Assembly: GCA_965225945.1 (NCBI GenBank)
Contig: CBDDBZ010000025.1
Location: 64,001 to 128,000, forward strand
Source: Alphaproteobacteria bacterium
Lineage (GTDB): Bacteria; Pseudomonadota; Alphaproteobacteria; GCA-2731375
DNA: 64,000 bases
Reading direction: 5' to 3'
Shown: positions 48,242-58,612 of the stretch, one piece after another
Layout of the letters: each line of letters begins with the position of its first letter
Numbering within the stretch: position 1 is the first letter of the stretch
Translations under genes and position numbers: made by a program
The notes under the pieces: model-generated
Told to the model about the DNA's origin: nothing
The model's input: the letters and a program-made list of their open reading frames with translations, nothing else
Databases searched by the model: none

Positions 48242-50293
48242 TCACCCGGCGCCGAGAAGCGCGATGGCGCGCGCGCCCAACACATCGAGCGCGCCGTTGG
48301 CGGCAAGCCAGGCTTCCGCCTCCGCCCGCCAGGGGGCGAGCGCCTCGCCGGCGCCACCGTCGAGCCCCCGGACCGCCTCCAGCGCGCCGCCGACGTCGCT
48401 CCGCTCGAGCCGCGCTTCCGCCCGCGCCAGCGCCGCCTGGGCGTCCTCGCCCGCGACCTCGCCTCGTCGGCGAACGGTGACCAGTCCGGCGATCCGGTGC
48501 CACATATAGTCCCACCATTCGTCCTTGCCGGGTCGGCCCTCGGCCTCGAGGCTCGCCTCGATCAGCGGCTGGAAACTGGCGCGCAGCCGCGCCGGCGTGG
48601 CGATGCCGCCGGCGGCCTTGGCCTCGAGCGTGGCGAGCGCGGCCGCGATCTCGGCGTCACCCTCGGCGAGTGGGGTGATCGTCGTCAGGACCTTGGCGTA
48701 GGCGCGCCCGGATCGGACCGCGTTGTCGAGCTGGCCGACCGCCAGAACCAGGGCTTGGCGGCGCGCCGAATTCCGTATCTCGGCCCGCGCTTCCGTCAAG
48801 TCCTTCACGCTTCCGTCCAGGGCATCGAGGCGGCCGGCGAGTGCGGTCGTCTGGTCGACCACGCCCTCGAGCCGGCCCGCCAACGCTTGCGTGCGTTCGG
48901 CCGCCTCGCTCTCGCCCGTGGTGGCGGACGCCGGCATGCTCCGAAGCTCGGCGATGGCGCGATCGATGGCCGCGAGACGCGCCGTGAACTCGATCGTATC
49001 CGCGGCCCCCGCCTTACCCGCCGCCGCGACGGGCACTGGGCGGGCCTCGATCGCCGTGAGCCGCTTCTCCAGCTCGACGAGGGTGCCGGCGAGCGCGGGA
49101 TCGGCGGCCGAGGCACCTTGGGCGGCGCCCTTCAGGCTCTTTTCCACCCGGTCCAGGCGACGGGCGAGTTGGCGTGCCGGGGCCGGGTCGCTCGGGGTCA
49201 GGGTGGCGACGCGGGCCCCCAGGCTCTCCAATCGCGCTTCCAGCGCCGCCAGCCGCAGCACCCTCGGGTCCTGCAGGAAGTCGGGGAGATAGGGCAGGAG
49301 GTACGGCGACGTCGCCGGCCAAATCAACATGCCGACGATGAAGGCGACCAGCAGGGAAGCGATCCAGGCGAGCTTGACGCCGTGACCGCCGAACGGTCCC
49401 CGGGATGGCGCGTTCGGGCCGTCTCCGAGGGGCGGCTCGCTCCCCTCGTTCGCCCGGCCGGCGGTGTCGGACCCGGTGAAGGGCGTCTCGGTGGACTCCG
49501 CCGAAGTCGTTTCGCTCTTCGTCTCTGCGGGCACGGCCTCGGCGGTCGGATCGTCTTCGGATGGTCCCGGCGTCCTTGCCAATGCGCCCTCCTCCAAGGT
49601 TTCGAGCAGGCCTGCCTCGGTCGGTTCGGCCGCGGTTCTTAACGCCCGCCAATGTATTTCCGCCAGCTCCCGCGCCACGGCGGGGGAGAGGCAACAGGCG
49701 ACGACGTCGCGACACGTGCCCACCAGGTTCGCGCCGCGCACGAGACTAGCAAAGGCGGCGGCGGTGCGCGGCGAAAAAAACAGCGCCGCGTCGATTTGCC
49801 CCTCGACGAGCGCGCGCGCGGCCTCGACCGGCAACGTCGCGGCGGTACGCGCCTCGTAGAGCGTGGCGCGGCGCACCTCAAAGCCGGCGGCCCGCAGCGT
49901 GCCGGCGAGATCGCCGGCGAGATCGCCGGCCGCGATGTGCAGCACCGCGCCGTCGGCGGGCGTCAGGCGCGATTGGACCAGCGCCGCCAGCGCTTGGACA
50001 TCGCCGCCCGCGCTCTCCACCGCTTTGAAGCCGAGTTCGCGGGCCGTTCTCGCCGTGGCGTCACCGACGGCGAGGAGCGGCGGCCGAAGCGGCTTGCCGG
50101 CAACCCGGGCGAGCGCGCGGACGCCGTTGGCGCTGGTCGCCAGGATCGCCTGGATGCCGTCCAGCTCCAGCGTGACGCTATCGTGGAAGTAGATTTCCAA
50201 GAGCGGCGCCCGGACCACCTCGTGACCGAGTCCCTCCAGCCTTTCGACCAGAAGCTGAGCGTCCGCTTGCGCGCGCGTGACCAGGAGACGCAT
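48242..50293 (-). CDS. hemD: Uroporphyrinogen-III synthase fused to mitofilin-domain (alphaMic60) protein
   Basis: N-terminal LLVTR, TSANGV and FFSPRTA (HemD), then linker, TM helix, coiled coil and C-terminal LVTVRR...ARAE...W mitofilin-like domain. Confidence 0.85.
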   Translation of the reverse strand: MRLLVTRAQADAQLLVERLEGLGHEVVRAPLLEIYFHDSVTLELDGIQAILATSANGVRALARVAGKPLRPPLLAVGDATARTARELGFKAVESAGGDVQALAALVQSRLTPADGAVLHIAAGDLAGDLAGTLRAAGFEVRRATLYEARTAATLPVEAARALVEGQIDAALFFSPRTAAAFASLVRGANLVGTCRDVVACCLSPAVARELAEIHWRALRTAAEPTEAGLLETLEEGALARTPGPSEDDPTAEAVPAETKSETTSAESTETPFTGSDTAGRANEGSEPPLGDGPNAPSRGPFGGHGVKLAWIASLLVAFIVGMLIWPATSPYLLPYLPDFLQDPRVLRLAALEARLESLGARVATLTPSDPAPARQLARRLDRVEKSLKGAAQGASAADPALAGTLVELEKRLTAIEARPVPVAAAGKAGAADTIEFTARLAAIDRAIAELRSMPASATTGESEAAERTQALAGRLEGVVDQTTALAGRLDALDGSVKDLTEARAEIRNSARRQALVLAVGQLDNAVRSGRAYAKVLTTITPLAEGDAEIAAALATLEAKAAGGIATPARLRASFQPLIEASLEAEGRPGKDEWWDYMWHRIAGLVTVRRRGEVAGEDAQAALARAEARLERSDVGGALEAVRGLDGGAGEALAPWRAEAEAWLAANGALDVLGARAIALLGAG

Positions 50294-50300
50294 GGCGCCC

Positions 50301-51236
50301 TCACGGTCCGTCGACGAAGAAGTCCGGTCCCGCGCGGCGCAACAGCTCCAGCCCTGCCTCGCGGCCGAGCGCCGGCCCGTCCGCCGCCGGACCGCGCCGC
50401 GAGGTGGCGTGCCGCGCGCGCCCGTCGGGCGAGAGGATCTCGCCCTGGAAGGCGATCAACCCCTCGGCGTCGAGACTGGCGAGGCCGGCGATCGGGGTCC
50501 GGCAGGAACCGTCGAGCGCGGCGAGAAAAGCCCGTTCGGTGGCGACGCGAAGCGCCGAGGGCGCATCATCGATGGGTGCCAGCAGCGCCCGCGTGGCCGC
50601 GTCGTCGGCGCGGATCTCTATACCGATGGCGCCTTGCGCCACCGCGGGCAAAATCTCCGCCGGCGCCACCGGGACGCCGTACCGGCCGCCGAGGCCGAGG
50701 CGCCGGAGCCCCGCCTCGGCCAGCAGCATCGCGTCGGCCTCGCCCGACTCGAAGCGCGCCAAGCGGGTCCCCAGATTGCCCCTGTTCTCGATGATCCGGA
50801 GGTCCGGGCGGCAATATAGCGCCTGCGCGCGGCGGCGCAGCGAGGAGGTGGCCAGCACCGCGCCCTCCGCCAGCCCGTCGAGCGTGTCCGCATCCCGCGC
50901 CAGCAGGACATCGCGCGGGTCTTCCCGGGGCAAGACGCAGGCAATCTCCATGCCGTCCGGCAGCACCGTCGCCACGTCCTTCATGGAATGGACCGCGAGG
51001 TCGATCTCGCCGGCCGCGAGCGCCGCCTCGATCTCCTTGGTGAAGAGGCCCTTGCCGCCGACTTCGCGCAGCGGCTTGTCTTGAATACGGTCGCCGCTGG
51101 TGGCTATGGCAACGACGGCGATCGCGCCCCGATCGAGCCCGTGCGCCACGGCCAGGCGGTCGCGCACCTCCTCGGCCTGGGCCAGGGCGAGCGGGCTGCC
51201 GCGGGTGCCGATGCGAAGCGTCGGTTGCGGGCTCAT
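50301..51236 (-). CDS. hemC: Hydroxymethylbilane synthase
   Basis: [26 protein letters not shown] and GSCRTP motifs. Confidence 0.96.
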
Positions 51237-51314
51237 GCCCCCGGTGCTAAGCGCTTCGGTGGCTCGGCGCAAGGCGGAATCGGAGCCCGCCCGCCGGCCC
51301 CGGGAGAGCCAGGC

Positions 51315-52373
51315 GTGAACGACCCCACGATCCGCGTCCTCGGCATCGAGACCAGTTGCGACGAAACCGCGGCGGCGCTCGTCAGGGGCGACGGCCGCAT
51401 CCTCGCCGAGCGGTTGGCGAGCCAGACGGCCGAGCACGCGCCCTACGGCGGCGTGGTGCCGGAGATCGCCGCGCGCGCCCATGTCTCGCGGCTGGACCAT
51501 CTGATCGCCGATGTGATGGCGGAAGCGAAGCTGCCGTTGGGTGAAATCGACGCGGTCGCCGCGACCGCCGGCCCCGGCCTGATCGGCGGCCTGCTGGTCG
51601 GTCTCTCGACGGCGAAGGCGATCGCCTCCATCCTCGCCAAGCCCCTGCTCGCGGTCAACCACCTGGAAGGCCATGCCTTGAGCGCCCGCCTGGTCGCCGA
51701 GGTGCCGTTTCCCTATCTGCTGCTGCTGGTCTCGGGCGGGCACTGCCAGTTGCAGCTGGTGCGCGGCGTCGGGCGCTACGATCGCCTGGGCACGACGATC
51801 GACGACGCGGTGGGGGAGGCCTTCGACAAGACCGCGATCCTGCTCGGCCTCGGCTTTCCGGGCGGGCCGGCGATCGAGCGGGCGGCGGTGGACGGTCGGG
51901 CCGACGCCTATCCGCTGCCCCGCCCGATGCGGGCGCGCGAGGGTGCCAATTTCTCCTTCTCCGGCCTGAAGACGGCGGTGCGCTACCTGCTGGAGCGCGA
52001 GCCCGGAGCGCGGCCGGCGGACGTGGCGGCGAGCTTTCAGGCGGCGGTGGTCGAGGTGCTGGTGGACCGCACTCGCCGGGCCATCGCCATGGCCCGCGCG
52101 CGCGACGGCGCGACGGCGCATCTGGTCGTCGCCGGCGGTGTCGCCGCCAACCGCGCGATTCGTGGCGCAATGGCGGAGCTCGCAGGCAGCGAAGGCTTGG
52201 ACCTGGTGGTGCCGCCGCCCCGGCTCTGCACCGACAACGCGGTGATGATCGCCTGGGCCGGGGTGGAGCGCCTGCGTCTCGGGCTGATAGACGACCTCTC
52301 GGCACCTGCCCGGGCCCGCTGGCCGCTCGACCCCGACGCCAAGCCCGCGCCCTTCGCGGGCGTCAAGGCATAG
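51315..52373 (+). CDS. tsaD: tRNA N6-adenosine threonylcarbamoyltransferase
   Basis: [19 protein letters not shown] and CTDNAVM motifs. Confidence 0.96.
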
Positions 52374-53267: not shown

Positions 53268-54086
53268 TCAATTCGCGTGGATCCACCAGAGCAGGCCGCC
53301 GCCCAGGATCAGGCGGTAGATCACGAAGATCGTGTAGCTGGAGTGGCGCACCCAGAACATCAGGAAGGCGATGGCGAGCAGCGCCGCGACGAAGGCCAGC
53401 GCACCGGCCACGAGCACGGATATACCGAACTGGAGATCGCCGCTCGCCGCCACCTCGACCGTGGCGTAGCCGCCGGCGGCGAGGATCGCCGGGATCGACA
53501 GCAGCATCGAGAAGCGCGCCGCCGCCGCCCGCTCCATCCCCAGCAGGCGGCCGCCGATGATGCAGGCGCCGGCCCGGCTGGTGCCCGGAACCAGCGCGAA
53601 ACACTGAATCAGGCCGATGAGCAGCGCGCCGCGCCAGGTCAGCTGGTCGAACGCGCCGGTGGTCCGCCCCGTTAGATCGACGGTATAGAGGACGGCGGCG
53701 AAGACGATGGTGGCCCAGGCGATCACCTCGAGCGAGCGCAGCATCTCGTCGATACCGAAGCGGGTCAGAGCCACGCCGGCGACGATCAGCGGGATCGTGC
53801 CCACCGCGAGCAGAACCAGGAGCGGCGTGTCCGGCGTCGCCTGGCCGCGGGCCAGCGCCAGGAGCGCGCGCAGCAGGCGGCGAACCTCGTCGCGGAAATA
53901 GATCCCCACCGCCCCGAGGGTGCCGACATGGACGGCGATGTCGAGCTCGATCCCCTGGTCCGGCCACTCGGCGATCACCGGCACCAGGATCAGATGGGCC
54001 GACGAGCTTATCGGCAGAAATTCGGTGATGCCCTGGACCAGCGCCAGGACGACAATCTGCACCAGCCCGACCGGACCTTCCGCCAT
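53268..54086 (-). CDS. uppP: Undecaprenyl-diphosphate phosphatase
   Basis: QGITEFLPISSSAHL and PGTSR motifs. Confidence 0.95.
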   Translation of the reverse strand: MAEGPVGLVQIVVLALVQGITEFLPISSSAHLILVPVIAEWPDQGIELDIAVHVGTLGAVGIYFRDEVRRLLRALLALARGQATPDTPLLVLLAVGTIPLIVAGVALTRFGIDEMLRSLEVIAWATIVFAAVLYTVDLTGRTTGAFDQLTWRGALLIGLIQCFALVPGTSRAGACIIGGRLLGMERAAAARFSMLLSIPAILAAGGYATVEVAASGDLQFGISVLVAGALAFVAALLAIAFLMFWVRHSSYTIFVIYRLILGGGLLWWIHAN

Positions 54087-54185: not shown

Positions 54186-54971
54186 TTAATCTCGATTTGA
54201 CTCGATAGCCGCTAGACATGCCGTGTCGACGACGAGTTCGCGGAGCAGGCGGCGGAGATCGCCGAAATTTTCGAAGGTCGCGTCGGGCGCCGCCTCGCCC
54301 GCGCCGATCGAGACCTCGGGGCGGCGCATCTGCAGCGCCGTGATGCCGAAGCCGCGGGCGCCCTGGATATCTTTCACCGGATCGTCGCCGATCATCCAGA
54401 CCTCGGCCGGCGAGACGCCGAGCTTGTCGATCACCAGCCGGAAGGGCGCGAAGGCCGGCTTGTCGGCACCCGCCTCCTCCGAGGTCACGACGAAGTCGAA
54501 GGCCCCCTCGAGGCCGAAGTAGATCAGCTTGCGGAACTGGATTTGGGCGGTGAGGTCGGTGAGGACCGCCGTCGCGATCCCGGCGCTCCGGAGGTCGCGG
54601 ACAAAGTCGTCGACCTCCGCGAACAAGCGCGCATGCGCCAGAAAGGCCCGCCAGTAGGTCTGCTCCAGGTCCAGGCTGGTCAGCGGCCGGCTCTTCATGC
54701 CGAGTAATTCGACGGCGCGGTGGTAGTAGAGCAATCGGTTGTGGGAGCTCGCGGTATCGCCCAACTGCGACTTCACCGCCGCGCGCCCTCGTGCCACCGC
54801 CTCGCGGAACGCCCCTCGCTCGACGCCCAGCAATTGGACCGCCTTCTCCTCGACGATCTCGCTCGCCGCCTCATGCGCGGGTGCGTAGGCGTAAAGGGTG
54901 TCGTCGAAATCGAGGATCACCGCGGCCGGCGCCTTGGCCAGCGCATCCGGGGTCAATCGCTTCACCGCCAT
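54186..54971 (-). CDS. HAD-superfamily hydrolase
   Basis: DFDDTL, KP and GDDPVKD motifs. Confidence 0.88.
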   Translation of the reverse strand: MAVKRLTPDALAKAPAAVILDFDDTLYAYAPAHEAASEIVEEKAVQLLGVERGAFREAVARGRAAVKSQLGDTASSHNRLLYYHRAVELLGMKSRPLTSLDLEQTYWRAFLAHARLFAEVDDFVRDLRSAGIATAVLTDLTAQIQFRKLIYFGLEGAFDFVVTSEEAGADKPAFAPFRLVIDKLGVSPAEVWMIGDDPVKDIQGARGFGITALQMRRPEVSIGAGEAAPDATFENFGDLRRLLRELVVDTACLAAIESNRD

Positions 54972-57043
54972 GTTCGGTCCCTCAACGCTTGCTCGATCTC
55001 GACCAAGGTGACGAGCTGCATGATACCGCCCATTCGCCCGCTCCATGTCGGCGAGCGGTCCAACAGCTCGTCAAGCCGGGGTACCAGCATTTGCGCGGCG
55101 AGCGCGATATCCGCCGCCGCCACCTCGCCGTCGACCGTGAAGGCGACCGTGGCCTCGTGGTCGATCTCCTCGACATCGACCCTGAGGCCGCAGACCCCGA
55201 TCAGGACTCGCGACAACTGTTCGTAGTAGAGCCCTTCGCGCAGCCGGACGTGCAGCTTCACCCGGGTTTCGTCGATTCCCCGCTCGTCGCGGAGCATATC
55301 GGGGTGGACCGGCAGGAGGGTGAAGACGAGGTCGGCGTGGCGTGCCTGGGGCTGGATGTAACGCGCGCCGTCAGGTCGGCGGCGTTCGATCGAGGCGGTG
55401 ACCGCCGCCGGATCATGCCCGCGCTCGCCGACGTCGCGGGCGATCTTCCAATGGCGACGCAGGTCTTCCTCGGTGGCGACGAAGATGGCGAGGTCGAGGC
55501 GGCTCCGGAGCTCCGGCGGATAGAGCGTGTGCAAGCCGGAGACGATGACCACGTCGTTCGGCGGGATCACCTCGGGCGCCGTGAACCGCCCGGTGGCGTG
55601 ATCGTAGCGCCGGGCGACGACCCGGCGACCCTCGATCATGCCGAGCGCGTCCTCGGTGAACCGCCGGAGGTCGTTGGCGCGTGGGTCGAGATGGGTCAGC
55701 GCGCGCCACATCGGCTCCTGCCGTTCCCAGTTGTGATAGTCGTCGCCGGTGACATGGGTCACCGCCCGCTCGCCGAAGAGCCCGGCGATCGCCAACGCCA
55801 ATGTGCTCTTGCCGGTGCCGGAATCGCCGGCAATGCCGATCGCCAGCGGGCGGCGGCCGAGCCGGTGGAAGTCGTTGCCGGTGATCCCGCGCCGGTACAT
55901 GCCCACCGCCAACACGACCCCGAGCGCGGTGACCAGGGTGAGCCAGAGCGAGCGCGCGTGCGGCGTCACATGGGCGGCGAACTCCGCCCCCTGCCAGGTG
56001 TAGTCGAGGCCGAGGAACGGCACCCCGGCGCCCTGCGAATAGAGCAGGTGATAGGGGATCAGCAGCAGCGCGAAGACGCTGGTCAGGAAGACGGCGTTGC
56101 CGCCCACTCGGAGCTGGTGGAGGGCGAGGAAAGGCAGCACCCAGAGGTACCAGCCGACCGAGGCCGGCGTCATCAAGACGACGACGACGAAGACGACGCC
56201 GAGGATCGCCAACAGCAGCTCGAAATTCTGCCGGCGAAACCGCCAGACGACGTAGAGCACCAGGAGATAGACCAAGGGCGTCAGATAGATGCCGAGGCCC
56301 GGCGCGAGGTCGATCGAGAGCTGATAGACCTTGCCGATCTCACGGCTGCCGAAGACCATCTGGGTGAAGCCGGGCGAGAGTAGCCAAGGCCCCTGGGCCG
56401 CCAGCAAGGTGGCGGCGGCGGCGGCGGCGAAGGGGATCGCCAGGTCGCGCGTCCGCTTGTTGACCCAGAGGTAGAGCAGCAGGAAGGGTGCCGCGAGCAC
56501 CATCGACAGCTTGGCGACGATGGCGAGGCCGGTGGCGATGCCGGCGGCATGCGGCCTGGCGCTCTTCAGATAGAGCAGCGCGCCGAGCAGAAAGGCGACC
56601 GGCACCACGTCGGTCTGGCCGTGCCAATAGGTGATGTAGAAGGAGAAGGGCGAAAGCCAGTAGAAGATCAGGATCTCGCGCGGACGGTCGTCGACGATTC
56701 GGGTCAGCAACAGCAGTGCCCAGACGTCGGCGAACAACAGGCTCGCGCGGAATCCGACGCCGGCCAGATAGTCGATATTCAGCAGTTGATCGGCCAGCAT
56801 CCCGACGGCGACCGACGGCAGGTGCGCCAGCAGCATAACGGTGCCATAGGGAAAGGCGAGCGCATCGCCGCCCTGGGCGATGAAGTCGGTCCAGGGGTCC
56901 GCGCTCGGCGAGGTCACCAGGAATTGGACGAAGGGCAGGAACCATTCTCGCTGCACCTCCGGCACCACCAGGGCGACGAGCAGCAGCTTCGCCACCAAGC
57001 CCGCCCGGAAGAGCGGCTGTCGCGAGAGCGCCTTCAGGTCCAT
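54962..57043 (-). CDS. GT-C-like multi-pass membrane protein fused to a phosphoribulokinase/uridine kinase-family domain
   Basis: About 10-12 hydrophobic segments with FPYG, HGQTD and AK motifs; then GDSGTGKST, DDYH, RDVGERGH and YIQPQ. Confidence 0.8.
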   Translation of the reverse strand: MDLKALSRQPLFRAGLVAKLLLVALVVPEVQREWFLPFVQFLVTSPSADPWTDFIAQGGDALAFPYGTVMLLAHLPSVAVGMLADQLLNIDYLAGVGFRASLLFADVWALLLLTRIVDDRPREILIFYWLSPFSFYITYWHGQTDVVPVAFLLGALLYLKSARPHAAGIATGLAIVAKLSMVLAAPFLLLYLWVNKRTRDLAIPFAAAAAATLLAAQGPWLLSPGFTQMVFGSREIGKVYQLSIDLAPGLGIYLTPLVYLLVLYVVWRFRRQNFELLLAILGVVFVVVVLMTPASVGWYLWVLPFLALHQLRVGGNAVFLTSVFALLLIPYHLLYSQGAGVPFLGLDYTWQGAEFAAHVTPHARSLWLTLVTALGVVLAVGMYRRGITGNDFHRLGRRPLAIGIAGDSGTGKSTLALAIAGLFGERAVTHVTGDDYHNWERQEPMWRALTHLDPRANDLRRFTEDALGMIEGRRVVARRYDHATGRFTAPEVIPPNDVVIVSGLHTLYPPELRSRLDLAIFVATEEDLRRHWKIARDVGERGHDPAAVTASIERRRPDGARYIQPQARHADLVFTLLPVHPDMLRDERGIDETRVKLHVRLREGLYYEQLSRVLIGVCGLRVDVEEIDHEATVAFTVDGEVAAADIALAAQMLVPRLDELLDRSPTWSGRMGGIMQLVTLVEIEQALRDRTWR

Positions 57044-57074: not shown

Positions 57075-57659
57075 TCAGCGCCAAAGCTCGGGCGCCTTGG
57101 TGCAGACCGCCTCGGCCCGGATGCCGCGGTTCGCCAGCAGTCGCCGCATGTCGGCGATTTCGGAGGTCTCGCGCCCCTGCAATTCGGGCGAGACCAGGCA
57201 GAGGCGGAAACCGGCGGCCTGCAATGATTCGGCCTCAGCACGGCACAGCGGGAACTTGGTGAAACAGTCGACCCAGGCCCACTCGATCATGCCGGCGAGC
57301 GCCAGCGCGGTATCGAGCGTCTCGTATTCCGACACGCGGACGGCGCAGCGCCTCTCGCCCGCCCGTGCGGTGCGGATCAAGAATGGGAAGGACTGGTCGA
57401 GGAAGAAGAAATTTTCAATTCCCTCGGCCGCCACCGCCGCCAGCACGTGCGTCTCCAGCCCTTCTTCCTTGACGTTCAGGATCAAGGTGCCGTGCGCATA
57501 GGCTTGAAGCCAGTCCTCGAACCGCTCACCGACGACGAAGGGGTCGTGGTGGATCACCAAGTCGTCGCCCTGGCTGCGGATGTCGACTTCGATGCCGAGC
57601 TCGCGCGGTGTCGCCTCCAGCTCGGCCCGGGTGTTGCGGCGATGGCGGATCAGGATCAT
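57075..57659 (-). CDS. Short GDPD/PI-PLC-like phosphodiesterase-fold protein
   Basis: HRRN, GIEVDIR, HHDP, LNVKEEG and VCTK motifs. Confidence 0.7.
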   Translation of the reverse strand: MILIRHRRNTRAELEATPRELGIEVDIRSQGDDLVIHHDPFVVGERFEDWLQAYAHGTLILNVKEEGLETHVLAAVAAEGIENFFFLDQSFPFLIRTARAGERRCAVRVSEYETLDTALALAGMIEWAWVDCFTKFPLCRAEAESLQAAGFRLCLVSPELQGRETSEIADMRRLLANRGIRAEAVCTKAPELWR

Positions 57660-58369
57660 GCGGCTTCCCTCAAGCGCCGGCGGAGTTCCAGGCTGTAGCT
57701 CATGGTGCGGTGGATGAAGCGCGCCTTGGCCTTCCAGTCGACGTTCCAGCGCGAGATGCCGTGCGCCCGCGGGCCGAAGCGGACGGGAAAGCGCCGCACC
57801 TCCAGGCCGGCGATCCGGGCCTGATAATAGGCGTAGAGATCGAGCGAGAAATCCCCCGGCGGCGCCCGCCAGCTCTCGAAGAAGGCGCGGGGGAACATGG
57901 TCGGTTGGGCGTTGATGTCCCACATCGCGCGCGCCAGCAGCATGGTCTCGAAGGCGGCCATGCCCACAGTGAAGGCGACGTCGGCCAGCGGCCGGCCGAA
58001 GCGGCGGCCCTTGACGAAAAGCTGCTCGGGCCGCACCGCCGCCTCGAACAGCGCCAGGCCCCTGAGCGCGTCCTCCGGATCGGTCTGCATATCGGCGTGG
58101 GTCCAGGCGAGGATGTCGCCCTTGGCCACGGCGAGCCCGGCGAGGACGCCGTTGCCGTAGCCCTGGTTGATCTCGACGCGGGTGGTTTCGAGGAAGCCGT
58201 GTTCCCGCGCCGCGGCCGCCAGAATCGCGTCGCTGCCGTCGGCGGAGCCGTTGTCCACCAGCACGACCTCGACGTCGTCATGGCCCATCACCTCGGCCAG
58301 GCGGCCGATCAGCAGCGGCAGGTTGGCCGCCTCGTTGTAGCAGGGGATGACCAGCGACAGGGCCGTCAC
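57656..58369 (-). CDS. Glycosyltransferase family 2 (polyprenyl-phosphate glycosyltransferase-like)
   Basis: VIPCYNE, VDNGSADG, NQGYG, HADMQ and RAHGISRW motifs. Confidence 0.9.
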   Translation of the reverse strand: MTALSLVIPCYNEAANLPLLIGRLAEVMGHDDVEVVLVDNGSADGSDAILAAAAREHGFLETTRVEINQGYGNGVLAGLAVAKGDILAWTHADMQTDPEDALRGLALFEAAVRPEQLFVKGRRFGRPLADVAFTVGMAAFETMLLARAMWDINAQPTMFPRAFFESWRAPPGDFSLDLYAYYQARIAGLEVRRFPVRFGPRAHGISRWNVDWKAKARFIHRTMSYSLELRRRLREAA

Positions 58370-58612
58370 GGGCGACCTCCGGGCAAGCACCGCGAATCGC
58401 GGACCAAGGGTAGCATATCGACGCTGACGAGCCGCCACTCGGCACCCTTCGTCTCGAGGGTGTGGGATCGCCCGGGTCCAAGGGCAAAGAGGTCACCGTG
58501 AGATGATGGGCGCACGCCGCGCCTCGCGATTGCTGCTCGAGGACTCCCGGACGTCGGAGGCGATAGACTGGCCTCGGACCAACGCGCCCGAGTTGCGGGG
58601 AGATCGCCTTTC

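Follow-up and report, generated by a model that had tools for sequence, protein, structure and literature searches.

A phosphoribulokinase-type kinase fused to a GT-C membrane domain: a conserved, unstudied protein with a predicted part in Gtr-type surface glycosylation

The fusion gene and its two domains

The window analysed here is a 64,000-nucleotide stretch of the genome of an Alphaproteobacteria bacterium (lineage GCA-2731375; assembly GCA_965225945.1, contig CBDDBZ010000025.1, positions 64,001 to 128,000). It encodes a protein in which an N-terminal membrane domain with a GT-C glycosyltransferase fold is joined to a C-terminal kinase of the phosphoribulokinase (PRK) type. The fusion gene is the third of four in an operon ordered GT2 glycosyltransferase, GDPD-fold protein, fusion and HAD phosphatase (Table 1), the junctions being an ATGA overlap between the first two genes, a 31-nt gap between the second and third, and a 10-nt overlap between the end of the fusion and the start of the HAD gene. 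A first-pass annotation made from the letters alone had described a PRK domain and a GT-C-like membrane protein in one gene. Pfam confirmed both halves, with PF00485 (PRK) matching residues 402–579 (E = 4.3e-38) and PF09594 (GT87) matching residues 93–293 (E = 5.3e-09; 36.6 bits, above the gathering cut-off of 25); the GT87 model is reached by part of the fusion family only. All of the kinase motifs that the annotation quoted stand in the translation, namely AGDSGTGKST, DDYH, LDPRANDL, YDHATG, SGLH, WKIARDVGERGH and RRPDGARYIQPQARHAD.

Table 1. Features of the fusion locus, in positions of the window.
Feature	Position	Strand	Length	Basis or description
GT2 glycosyltransferase	57656..58438	minus	260 aa	Pfam Glycos_transf_2, E 2.6e-20
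Minimal GDPD/PI-PLC-fold protein	57075..57659	minus	194 aa	AF2 model and Foldseek
Fusion open reading frame	54962..57043	minus	693 aa	Open frame, 693 codons plus stop
Fusion residues 1–395	55859..57043	minus	395 aa	GT-C-fold polytopic membrane domain
Fusion residues 396–693 plus stop	54962..55858	minus		PRK-type P-loop kinase, expected to be cytoplasmic
HAD-IA phosphatase	54186..54971	minus		Pfam Hydrolase/HAD_2
UppP/BacA undecaprenyl-diphosphatase	53268..54086	minus		Pfam BacA, E 6.6e-70; 100 bp downstream of the HAD gene

Translation most likely begins with the ATG at 57043, since the closest homologues cover 100% of the 693-residue form; an alternative GTG would extend the open reading frame up to 57241 (759 residues) and overlap the upstream gene. 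Homologues are 631–722 residues long among 120 listed of 217 matches. Full-length relatives form at least 217 clusters at 90% identity and make up the majority of the 150 best clusters at 50%, and a search of the full-text literature, in which subscription journals were not covered, returned no paper on the fusion or on the gene cassette described below. The loop at residues 29–65 holds one Lys or Arg and five Asp or Glu, and that at residues 384–399 holds five Lys or Arg. Since these charges fit a topology with both termini inside, the kinase is predicted to lie in the cytoplasm.

The AlphaFold2 (AF2) model of residues 1–400, built on 40 aligned sequences, had a mean predicted local distance difference test (pLDDT) score of 93.6, and its significant Foldseek matches were exclusively GT-C proteins, with PIG-M, ALG3, ALG6, PIG-U, ArnT and PimE among the Foldseek and VIA-align matches. 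The VIA-align Z scores were 26.1 for glycosylphosphatidylinositol (GPI) mannosyltransferase I (9wno), 24.0 for ALG3 (9s6r), 23.3 for ALG6 (6snh), 21.1–23.2 for PIG-U and 18.7 for ArnT and PimE (5f15 and 9dm5). All 43 rows at Z ≥ 9.7 were GT-C proteins and the first unrelated row had a Z of 4.5, so that structure prediction and fold search bear out the GT-C fold foreseen for the N-terminus. The domain shares this fold with GT87 (PimE) and with the other GT-C_B-like enzymes PIG-M, ALG3 and ALG6 (Z 18.7–26.1 over 327–361 aligned residues) but differs from them in sequence (10–14% identity) and in that none of those enzymes bears a kinase.

Judging by its conserved residues, the GT-C domain is likely to be catalytically competent. 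It could instead serve as a PIG-U-like anchor or scaffold for the kinase, and perhaps also for the GT2, which has no membrane helices, with another enzyme carrying out the transfer. The place of PIG-U among the best fold matches favours a scaffold, as does the first-loop Asp, D49, which is kept in 154 of the 227 full-length members of the family. On the other side, D106, D145 and K178 are identical in 210–212 of 227 members (K178 in 212), and Y139 and Y66 are likewise kept within the range of 210–225; D106 is acidic in 225 and D145 in 216. Together with the gene neighbourhoods described below, this conservation makes a purely structural role improbable.

The kinase half gave its best NCBIfam match to the cyanobacterial-type PRK model (PRK07429/NF005655; 202.9 bits, residues 397–615 against model positions 6–220 of 326). 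The proteobacterial model PRK15453 reached 49.5 bits, and two udk models missed their cut-offs (84.4 bits versus 180, and 69.7 versus 220.3). When the kinase half was searched against the PDB with phmmer, cyanobacterial PRK scored highest (6gve, 154.7 bits), followed by 9qkn, a 321-residue protein named uridine kinase (123.7), archaeal PRK (5b3f, 120.4), Thermus uridine kinase (3w8r, 79.8) and Rhodobacter sphaeroides PRK (1a7j, 23.1).

We placed the domain in a tree of 65 rows that comprised 40 fusion kinase domains, 16 unfused relatives, four unfused genes from the same class, one Mycobacterium plasmid PRK, two CbbP and two Udk sequences, and held no cyanobacterial or plant sequences. The two Udk rows separated from the remainder with an SH-aLRT support of 100. 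One group, of 48 rows and with support 84, took in the fusion domains and six unfused sequences, and 15 relatives of the dimeric PRK type, including named PRKs of Sulfobacillus, Mycobacterium and Methanothrix, formed the adjacent group (support 81). A branch of length 3.59 carries the two CbbP rows, which join the fusion clade at its polytomy; we rejected a kinship of CbbP with this clade and read the position as a long-branch placement. The bit scores agree with the earlier view that a PRK fits better than uridine kinase or CbbP, and the family phylogeny does not group the domain with uridine kinases. The further label of a cyanobacterial or plant-type kinase stands in part: the best bit scores, from which the label is drawn, are to cyanobacterial-type PRK, but in the tree the domain belongs to a clade of its own beside the named dimeric-type PRKs.

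These data also bear on the idea that the domain is a uridine or cytidine kinase feeding UTP or CTP to local nucleotide-sugar synthesis. Relatives are often named "uridine kinase", and no other PF00485 gene, whether a separate uridine kinase or a CbbP-type PRK, was found in this genome (96.55% complete, 5.58% contamination). The missed udk cut-offs and the separation of the Udk rows argue against it, as do the motifs DDYH, LDPRAN and Y-D-H, which stand where the two udk rows have D-x-Y-Y, FDHP and Y-x-[FY], and we regard this explanation as extremely improbable.

Four genomes of the same class (L015–L018) carry unfused PRK-type genes of 314–320 residues with an intact Walker-B Glu. These cluster with the Mycobacterium plasmid PRK (support 98) and are ordinary PRK relatives outside the cassette clade.

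Structural work on PRK assigns the catalytic dyad to Asp57 and His105 of CrPRK, contact with the phosphate of ribulose 5-phosphate (Ru5P) to Arg64 and Tyr103, and further binding to the loop of Arg159 and Asp160 (PMC9978339; 10.1101/422709). Their equivalents in the fusion, mapped by motif alignment rather than by structure, are D434, H482, R441, Y480, R536 and D537. Across the 227 full-length members D434 is retained in 223, H482 in 215, R441 in 221, Y480 in 227, and R536 and D537 in 215 each; Q566 is kept in 227, and the Walker A P-loop (GDSGTGKST) has its Lys, K412, in 218.

The annotation had pointed out that the usual EGLH motif reads SGLH and that activity or substrate may differ. The change is real, yet it is not peculiar to the window gene. 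Position 502, just before GLH, is Ser in the window protein and Ser in 167, Thr in 21, Ala in 12 and Asn in 12 of the 227 members; every one of the 19 rows that lie outside the clade has Glu here (the 15 dimeric-type PRK relatives, two CbbP and two Udk). This Walker-B-like Glu is presumably a ligand of Mg-ATP. Since the whole clade lacks it, catalysis or substrate may differ from those of PRK. The P-loop Lys is followed by Asp (GK-D rather than GK-S/T) in 179 of 227 members, the window protein having Ser at this position.

One alternative follows this evidence closely: the kinase would act on another substrate, such as xylulose 5-phosphate, ribose 5-phosphate or a later intermediate, and would still serve a surface sugar without ribulose 1,5-bisphosphate (RuBP) as an intermediate. 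The clade-wide loss of the Glu, the GK-D variant, scores below the cut-offs of the PRK and RuBP-phosphatase models, and a clade apart from the named PRKs are all in keeping with it. The Ru5P-binding and catalytic residues assigned in the literature are nevertheless all kept, and the nearest named family of the neighbouring HAD protein acts on RuBP. We consider this alternative unlikely, although it retains an appreciable minor chance.

The comparison with dimeric PRK (EC 2.7.1.19; 6gve, 6hzk and 5b3f) gives the same mixed picture. The fusion kinase shares with it the PF00485 fold family, the Asp of DDYH, Y-x-H, the Arg that contacts the Ru5P phosphate, the R-D loop and the RRPD..PQ motif, and along an alignment of about 200 positions it matches cyanobacterial PRK at about every second residue, as judged by eye. 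It differs in sitting behind a 395-residue GT-C domain, in the Ser that replaces the Walker-B-like Glu, in a last stretch of about 80 residues outside the PRK model match, in having no RuBisCO partner, and in forming a separate clade. We describe it as a PRK-type kinase whose sugar-phosphate site appears intact and whose metal/ATP site appears altered, and stop short of calling it a proven PRK.

The conserved cassette and its viral counterparts

Relatives of the fusion are surrounded by a seven-gene cassette with the order class II aldolase fold, double nucleotidyltransferase, GtrA, GT2, GDPD, fusion and HAD. We scored synteny at 80 metagenome loci, which were the best of 375 relatives and are biased to closer kin, and counted only loci with enough flank. 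GT2 lay upstream at 51 of 51 loci, GDPD adjoined the fusion at 60 of 63, HAD lay downstream at 60 of 61, and the nucleotidyltransferase and aldolase-fold genes were found at 27 of 28 and 19 of 20; GtrA, searched with one distant query, was found at 29 of 44, a lower bound. The same genes surround relatives in metagenome-assembled genomes (MAGs) of Gemmataceae, Treponema and Pseudobdellovibrionaceae. On plasmid p5 of Azospirillum brasilense (RefSeq) all seven are consecutive and annotated, with GtrA, the polyprenyl-phosphate-type GT2 and the GT-C protein encoded together, and they adjoin genes for an ABC transporter, GDP-mannose dehydratase, GDP-fucose synthase and a GT1 enzyme, surroundings that resemble an O-antigen cluster. 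The genome studied here holds the complete cassette in split form, the aldolase-fold, nucleotidyltransferase and GtrA genes lying together on a second contig (C38); the C38 nucleotidyltransferase is 54% identical to that of a relative's locus (L001; E = 2.6e-204).

The GT2 protein has ArnC as its best NCBIfam match and no C-terminal membrane helices; its nine PDB matches include three ArnC, one Pyrococcus DPMS and three Synechocystis sll0501 entries, the last of which we take to be GtrB. It is likely, from these similarities, to be a polyprenyl-phosphate sugar synthase of the GtrB/ArnC/DPMS type. The 194-residue protein had no Pfam or NCBIfam match; its AF2 model (pLDDT 95.4) is a barrel, for which Foldseek matched glycerophosphodiester phosphodiesterases (best 3ks5, E = 6e-08, TMq 0.72). 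Seven residues (H6, R7, N9, E24, D26, R28 and H38) do not vary among 21 sequences of this protein, which has 5002 relatives at E ≤ 0.001, most of them with an identity of about 70%. The HAD protein matched NF053830 (ribulose-1,5-bisphosphate 5-phosphatase) at 182.8 bits over positions 3–232 of 234, the next family reaching 92.6.

The aldolase-fold protein contains an H-x-H stretch (LHTHS), NHG and the Glu of PSIETT, which we take, by analogy with FucA, to be the zinc ligands and catalytic Glu of class II aldolases, and the nucleotidyltransferase consists of two homologous halves that each carry G-x-G-x-R. By these motifs the aldolase-fold protein and both nucleotidyltransferase halves look active. 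In the Treponema MAG (L004, 4342–5940) the two halves are separate adjacent genes, and a DegT-type aminotransferase upstream hints at lineage-specific tailoring. Similar 599-residue open reading frames in L001 and L011 proved unrelated.

Among viral contigs of IMG/VR, 71 loci carry a relative of the kinase; 69 have the kinase half only and two the full fusion. The aldolase-fold gene accompanies the viral kinase at 64 loci, the nucleotidyltransferase at 55, GDPD at 35 and HAD at 32, all lower bounds obtained with bacterial queries, and GT2 and GtrA occur only at the two full-fusion loci. Since most viral loci keep the kinase and the sugar genes without GT2, GtrA or the GT-C domain, the kinase appears to belong to a soluble sugar-activation module that is separable from the membrane module. 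At two inspected viral loci, Leloir transferases of the GT61 or GT47/RXYLT1-like kind adjoin the kinase, and by this reading of the gene content the soluble module can supply Leloir transferases of the cytoplasm or, as in bacteria, the carrier-lipid route of GT2, GtrA and GT-C. Unfused viral kinases (L110:7425-8753 and L132:7380-8810) have an extra N-terminal stretch of about 190–215 residues with no Pfam match and no similarity to the HAD or GDPD protein of the window.

The viral loci cut both ways for the scaffold role considered above. That the kinase stands unfused at 69 of 71 loci speaks for it. Against it, GT2 and GtrA accompany the fusion at the metagenome loci, their product needs a periplasmic GT-C user, and neither gene was detected at a viral locus that lacks the GT-C domain.

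The first-pass annotation had noted no RuBisCO or cbb gene nearby, and this extends to the whole genome for the RuBisCO large subunit, which was not found; the neighbours of the fusion are glycan genes. An ordinary Calvin-cycle or RuBisCO-linked PRK that happens to be anchored in the membrane would account for PRKs being the best PDB and NCBIfam matches. Yet with no RuBisCO large subunit in the genome and glycan rather than cbb genes around the fusion, and with the comparison PRKs on Mycobacterium, Cupriavidus and Sinorhizobium plasmids sitting beside rpe, tkt or fbp, we consider it very improbable. On the Mycobacterium intracellulare plasmid (L100) the order is rpe, tkt, PRK and a HAD-IA hydrolase; a HAD gene beside PRK also occurs in an ordinary pentose-phosphate or Calvin–Benson–Bassham-type context.

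Named carriers of the fusion include Azospirillum, Teichococcus, Magnetofaba and Burkholderiales, with the MAGs of Gemmataceae, Treponema and Pseudobdellovibrionaceae as distant ones. In a sample of 200 other genomes of the same class, two held the full fusion and four an unfused PRK-type gene, and neither of the two sampled genomes of the same family held the fusion. Distribution within the class is patchy, the sampling being one that shows patchiness and not absence.

A proposed route to a surface sugar

The conserved gene context fits the earlier suggestion of a Calvin-cycle-type kinase working in envelope-glycan synthesis. We propose that the kinase starts a nucleotide-sugar pathway from Ru5P whose product is delivered to a surface glycan by a Gtr-type lipid carrier, and put the probability of this reading at about 0.6. 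From domain families and gene order we infer the following substrate, sequence of steps, sugar and acceptor. At C1 of Ru5P, or of a pentulose phosphate much like it, the cytoplasmic kinase would add a phosphate to give the 1,5-bisphosphate, and the adjacent HAD phosphatase would take off the 5-phosphate. The aldolase-fold enzyme, the two-domain nucleotidyltransferase and the GDPD-fold enzyme would then convert the 1-phosphate into a nucleotide-activated five-carbon sugar. GT2 would put this sugar on undecaprenyl phosphate, GtrA would flip the lipid-linked sugar over the membrane, and the GT-C domain of the fusion would hand it on to an acceptor in the periplasm, which is probably O-antigen or some other polysaccharide of the envelope.

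The membrane part of this proposal resembles the Gtr-type systems (GtrA/GtrB/GT-C; ArnC/ArnT), which likewise combine a polyprenyl-phosphate sugar synthase in the cytoplasm with a small flippase and with a GT-C transferase that faces the periplasm. The soluble part parallels the ADP-/GDP-heptose pathway, where the kinase HldE acts at C1, the HAD phosphatase GmhB removes the omega-phosphate and a nucleotidyltransferase activates the 1-phosphate. The kinase families are unrelated, however, and the heptose kinase phosphorylates an aldose at its anomeric carbon, whereas the cassette kinase would act on C1 of a ketose.

Several observations weigh against the proposal, one of them chemical. PRK phosphorylates a ketose at C1, which is not the anomeric carbon, whereas the donor required by an ArnC/DPMS-type GT2 is an anomeric nucleotide sugar. 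None of the cassette genes has a demonstrated activity that closes this gap, and since the phosphate of the PRK product sits on a non-anomeric carbon, at least one unprecedented step would be needed. Both assignments at the head of the pathway fall short of their models, the kinase with its 202.9 bits missing the NCBI PRK cut-off of 236 and the HAD protein missing the NF053830 cut-off of 330, and the Walker-B-like Glu is absent across the clade (Ser, Thr, Ala or Asn in 212 of 227). In the membrane half, a first-loop Asp usually acts as the base of GT-C enzymes, and D49 and D60 are kept in only 154 and 119 of 227 members; the non-catalytic PIG-U makes up four of the seven best fold matches. The cassette lies on two contigs here and has no adjoining acceptor genes, and HAD went undetected at 39 and GDPD at 36 of the 71 viral loci, where detection is a lower bound.

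A bolder version holds that RuBP is a committed intermediate of glycan biosynthesis, that the cassette makes a novel nucleotide-activated C5 sugar, and that the pathway is common to bacteria, large phages and giant viruses; we regard it as doubtful, with a small chance of being right. One option within it is a ketopentofuranose donor (ribulose or xylulose), for which the phosphate would pass from O1 to the anomeric O2 through the first nucleotidyltransferase half, a cyclising GDPD-fold phosphodiesterase and the second half. Another is that the aldolase-fold enzyme might yield an aldopentofuranose 1-phosphate, which would provide a route to lipid-linked arabino- or ribofuranose independent of phosphoribosyl pyrophosphate (PRPP).

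Precedents exist for parts of the Ru5P-based proposal. The closest published system is the pentofuranose three-component pathway of Citrobacter youngae, in which a HAD domain removes the 5-phosphate of a pentose (Kelly et al. 2024, PMC11127046). That system draws on PRPP and works with a UbiA-like synthase, a MATE flippase and a GT136 enzyme; the cassette instead has a PRK-type kinase, GT2, GtrA and a GT87-like domain, together with aldolase-fold, double-nucleotidyltransferase and GDPD-fold genes. The paper on it contains none of the terms ribulose, GT87, xylulose and phosphodiesterase, mentions "kinase" solely for WbdD, and does not mention the fusion.

The haloarchaeal non-carboxylating pentose bisphosphate pathway includes a HAD RuBP 5-phosphatase that was shown to yield ribulose 1-phosphate and whose gene lies beside a class II aldolase-fold gene (Sato et al. 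2022, PMC9700705). It is catabolic, draws RuBP from ribose 1,5-bisphosphate isomerase and ends in dihydroxyacetone phosphate and glycolaldehyde, whereas the RuBP of the cassette would come from the kinase, and its genes occur together with those for nucleotidyltransferases and glycosyltransferases. The aldolase-fold protein of the cassette is not close to FucA-type enzymes.

If the Ru5P-based proposal is right, the enzyme that marks the Calvin cycle also serves widely to open a sugar-activation pathway for surface glycans, and "phosphoribulokinase" genes in heterotrophs, on plasmids and in viruses would need rereading. A phage PRK that one report lists under carbon fixation (PMC10732071) may be a case in point. 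The proposal would also point to a so far unrecognised sugar on the surfaces of bacteria and viruses, which could be sought by way of these genes, and the fusion, in which the kinase for the precursor is joined to the last transferase, opens the pathway to direct tests.

Surroundings of the operon

The uppP gene that follows the operon is a local neighbour: its product would suit a carrier-lipid pathway, but no match to it was found beside the fusion at any of 87 related loci, and it stands outside the conserved cassette. Metatranscriptome contigs from two runs of one study match parts of uppP and of the GT2 and GDPD genes at ≥99% identity; from those two runs, whose libraries may also contain DNA, no contig covers the main part of the fusion gene. 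Upstream in window numbering, positions 48242–52373 hold genes that by translation alone are of housekeeping type and unrelated to glycan synthesis (a uroporphyrinogen-III synthase-like fusion and porphobilinogen deaminase-like, TsaD-like and short-chain dehydrogenase genes). Near the 3' end of the HAD gene, a 7953-letter contig from one DNA run carries a 20-letter insertion behind position 54224, which is probably a strain difference.

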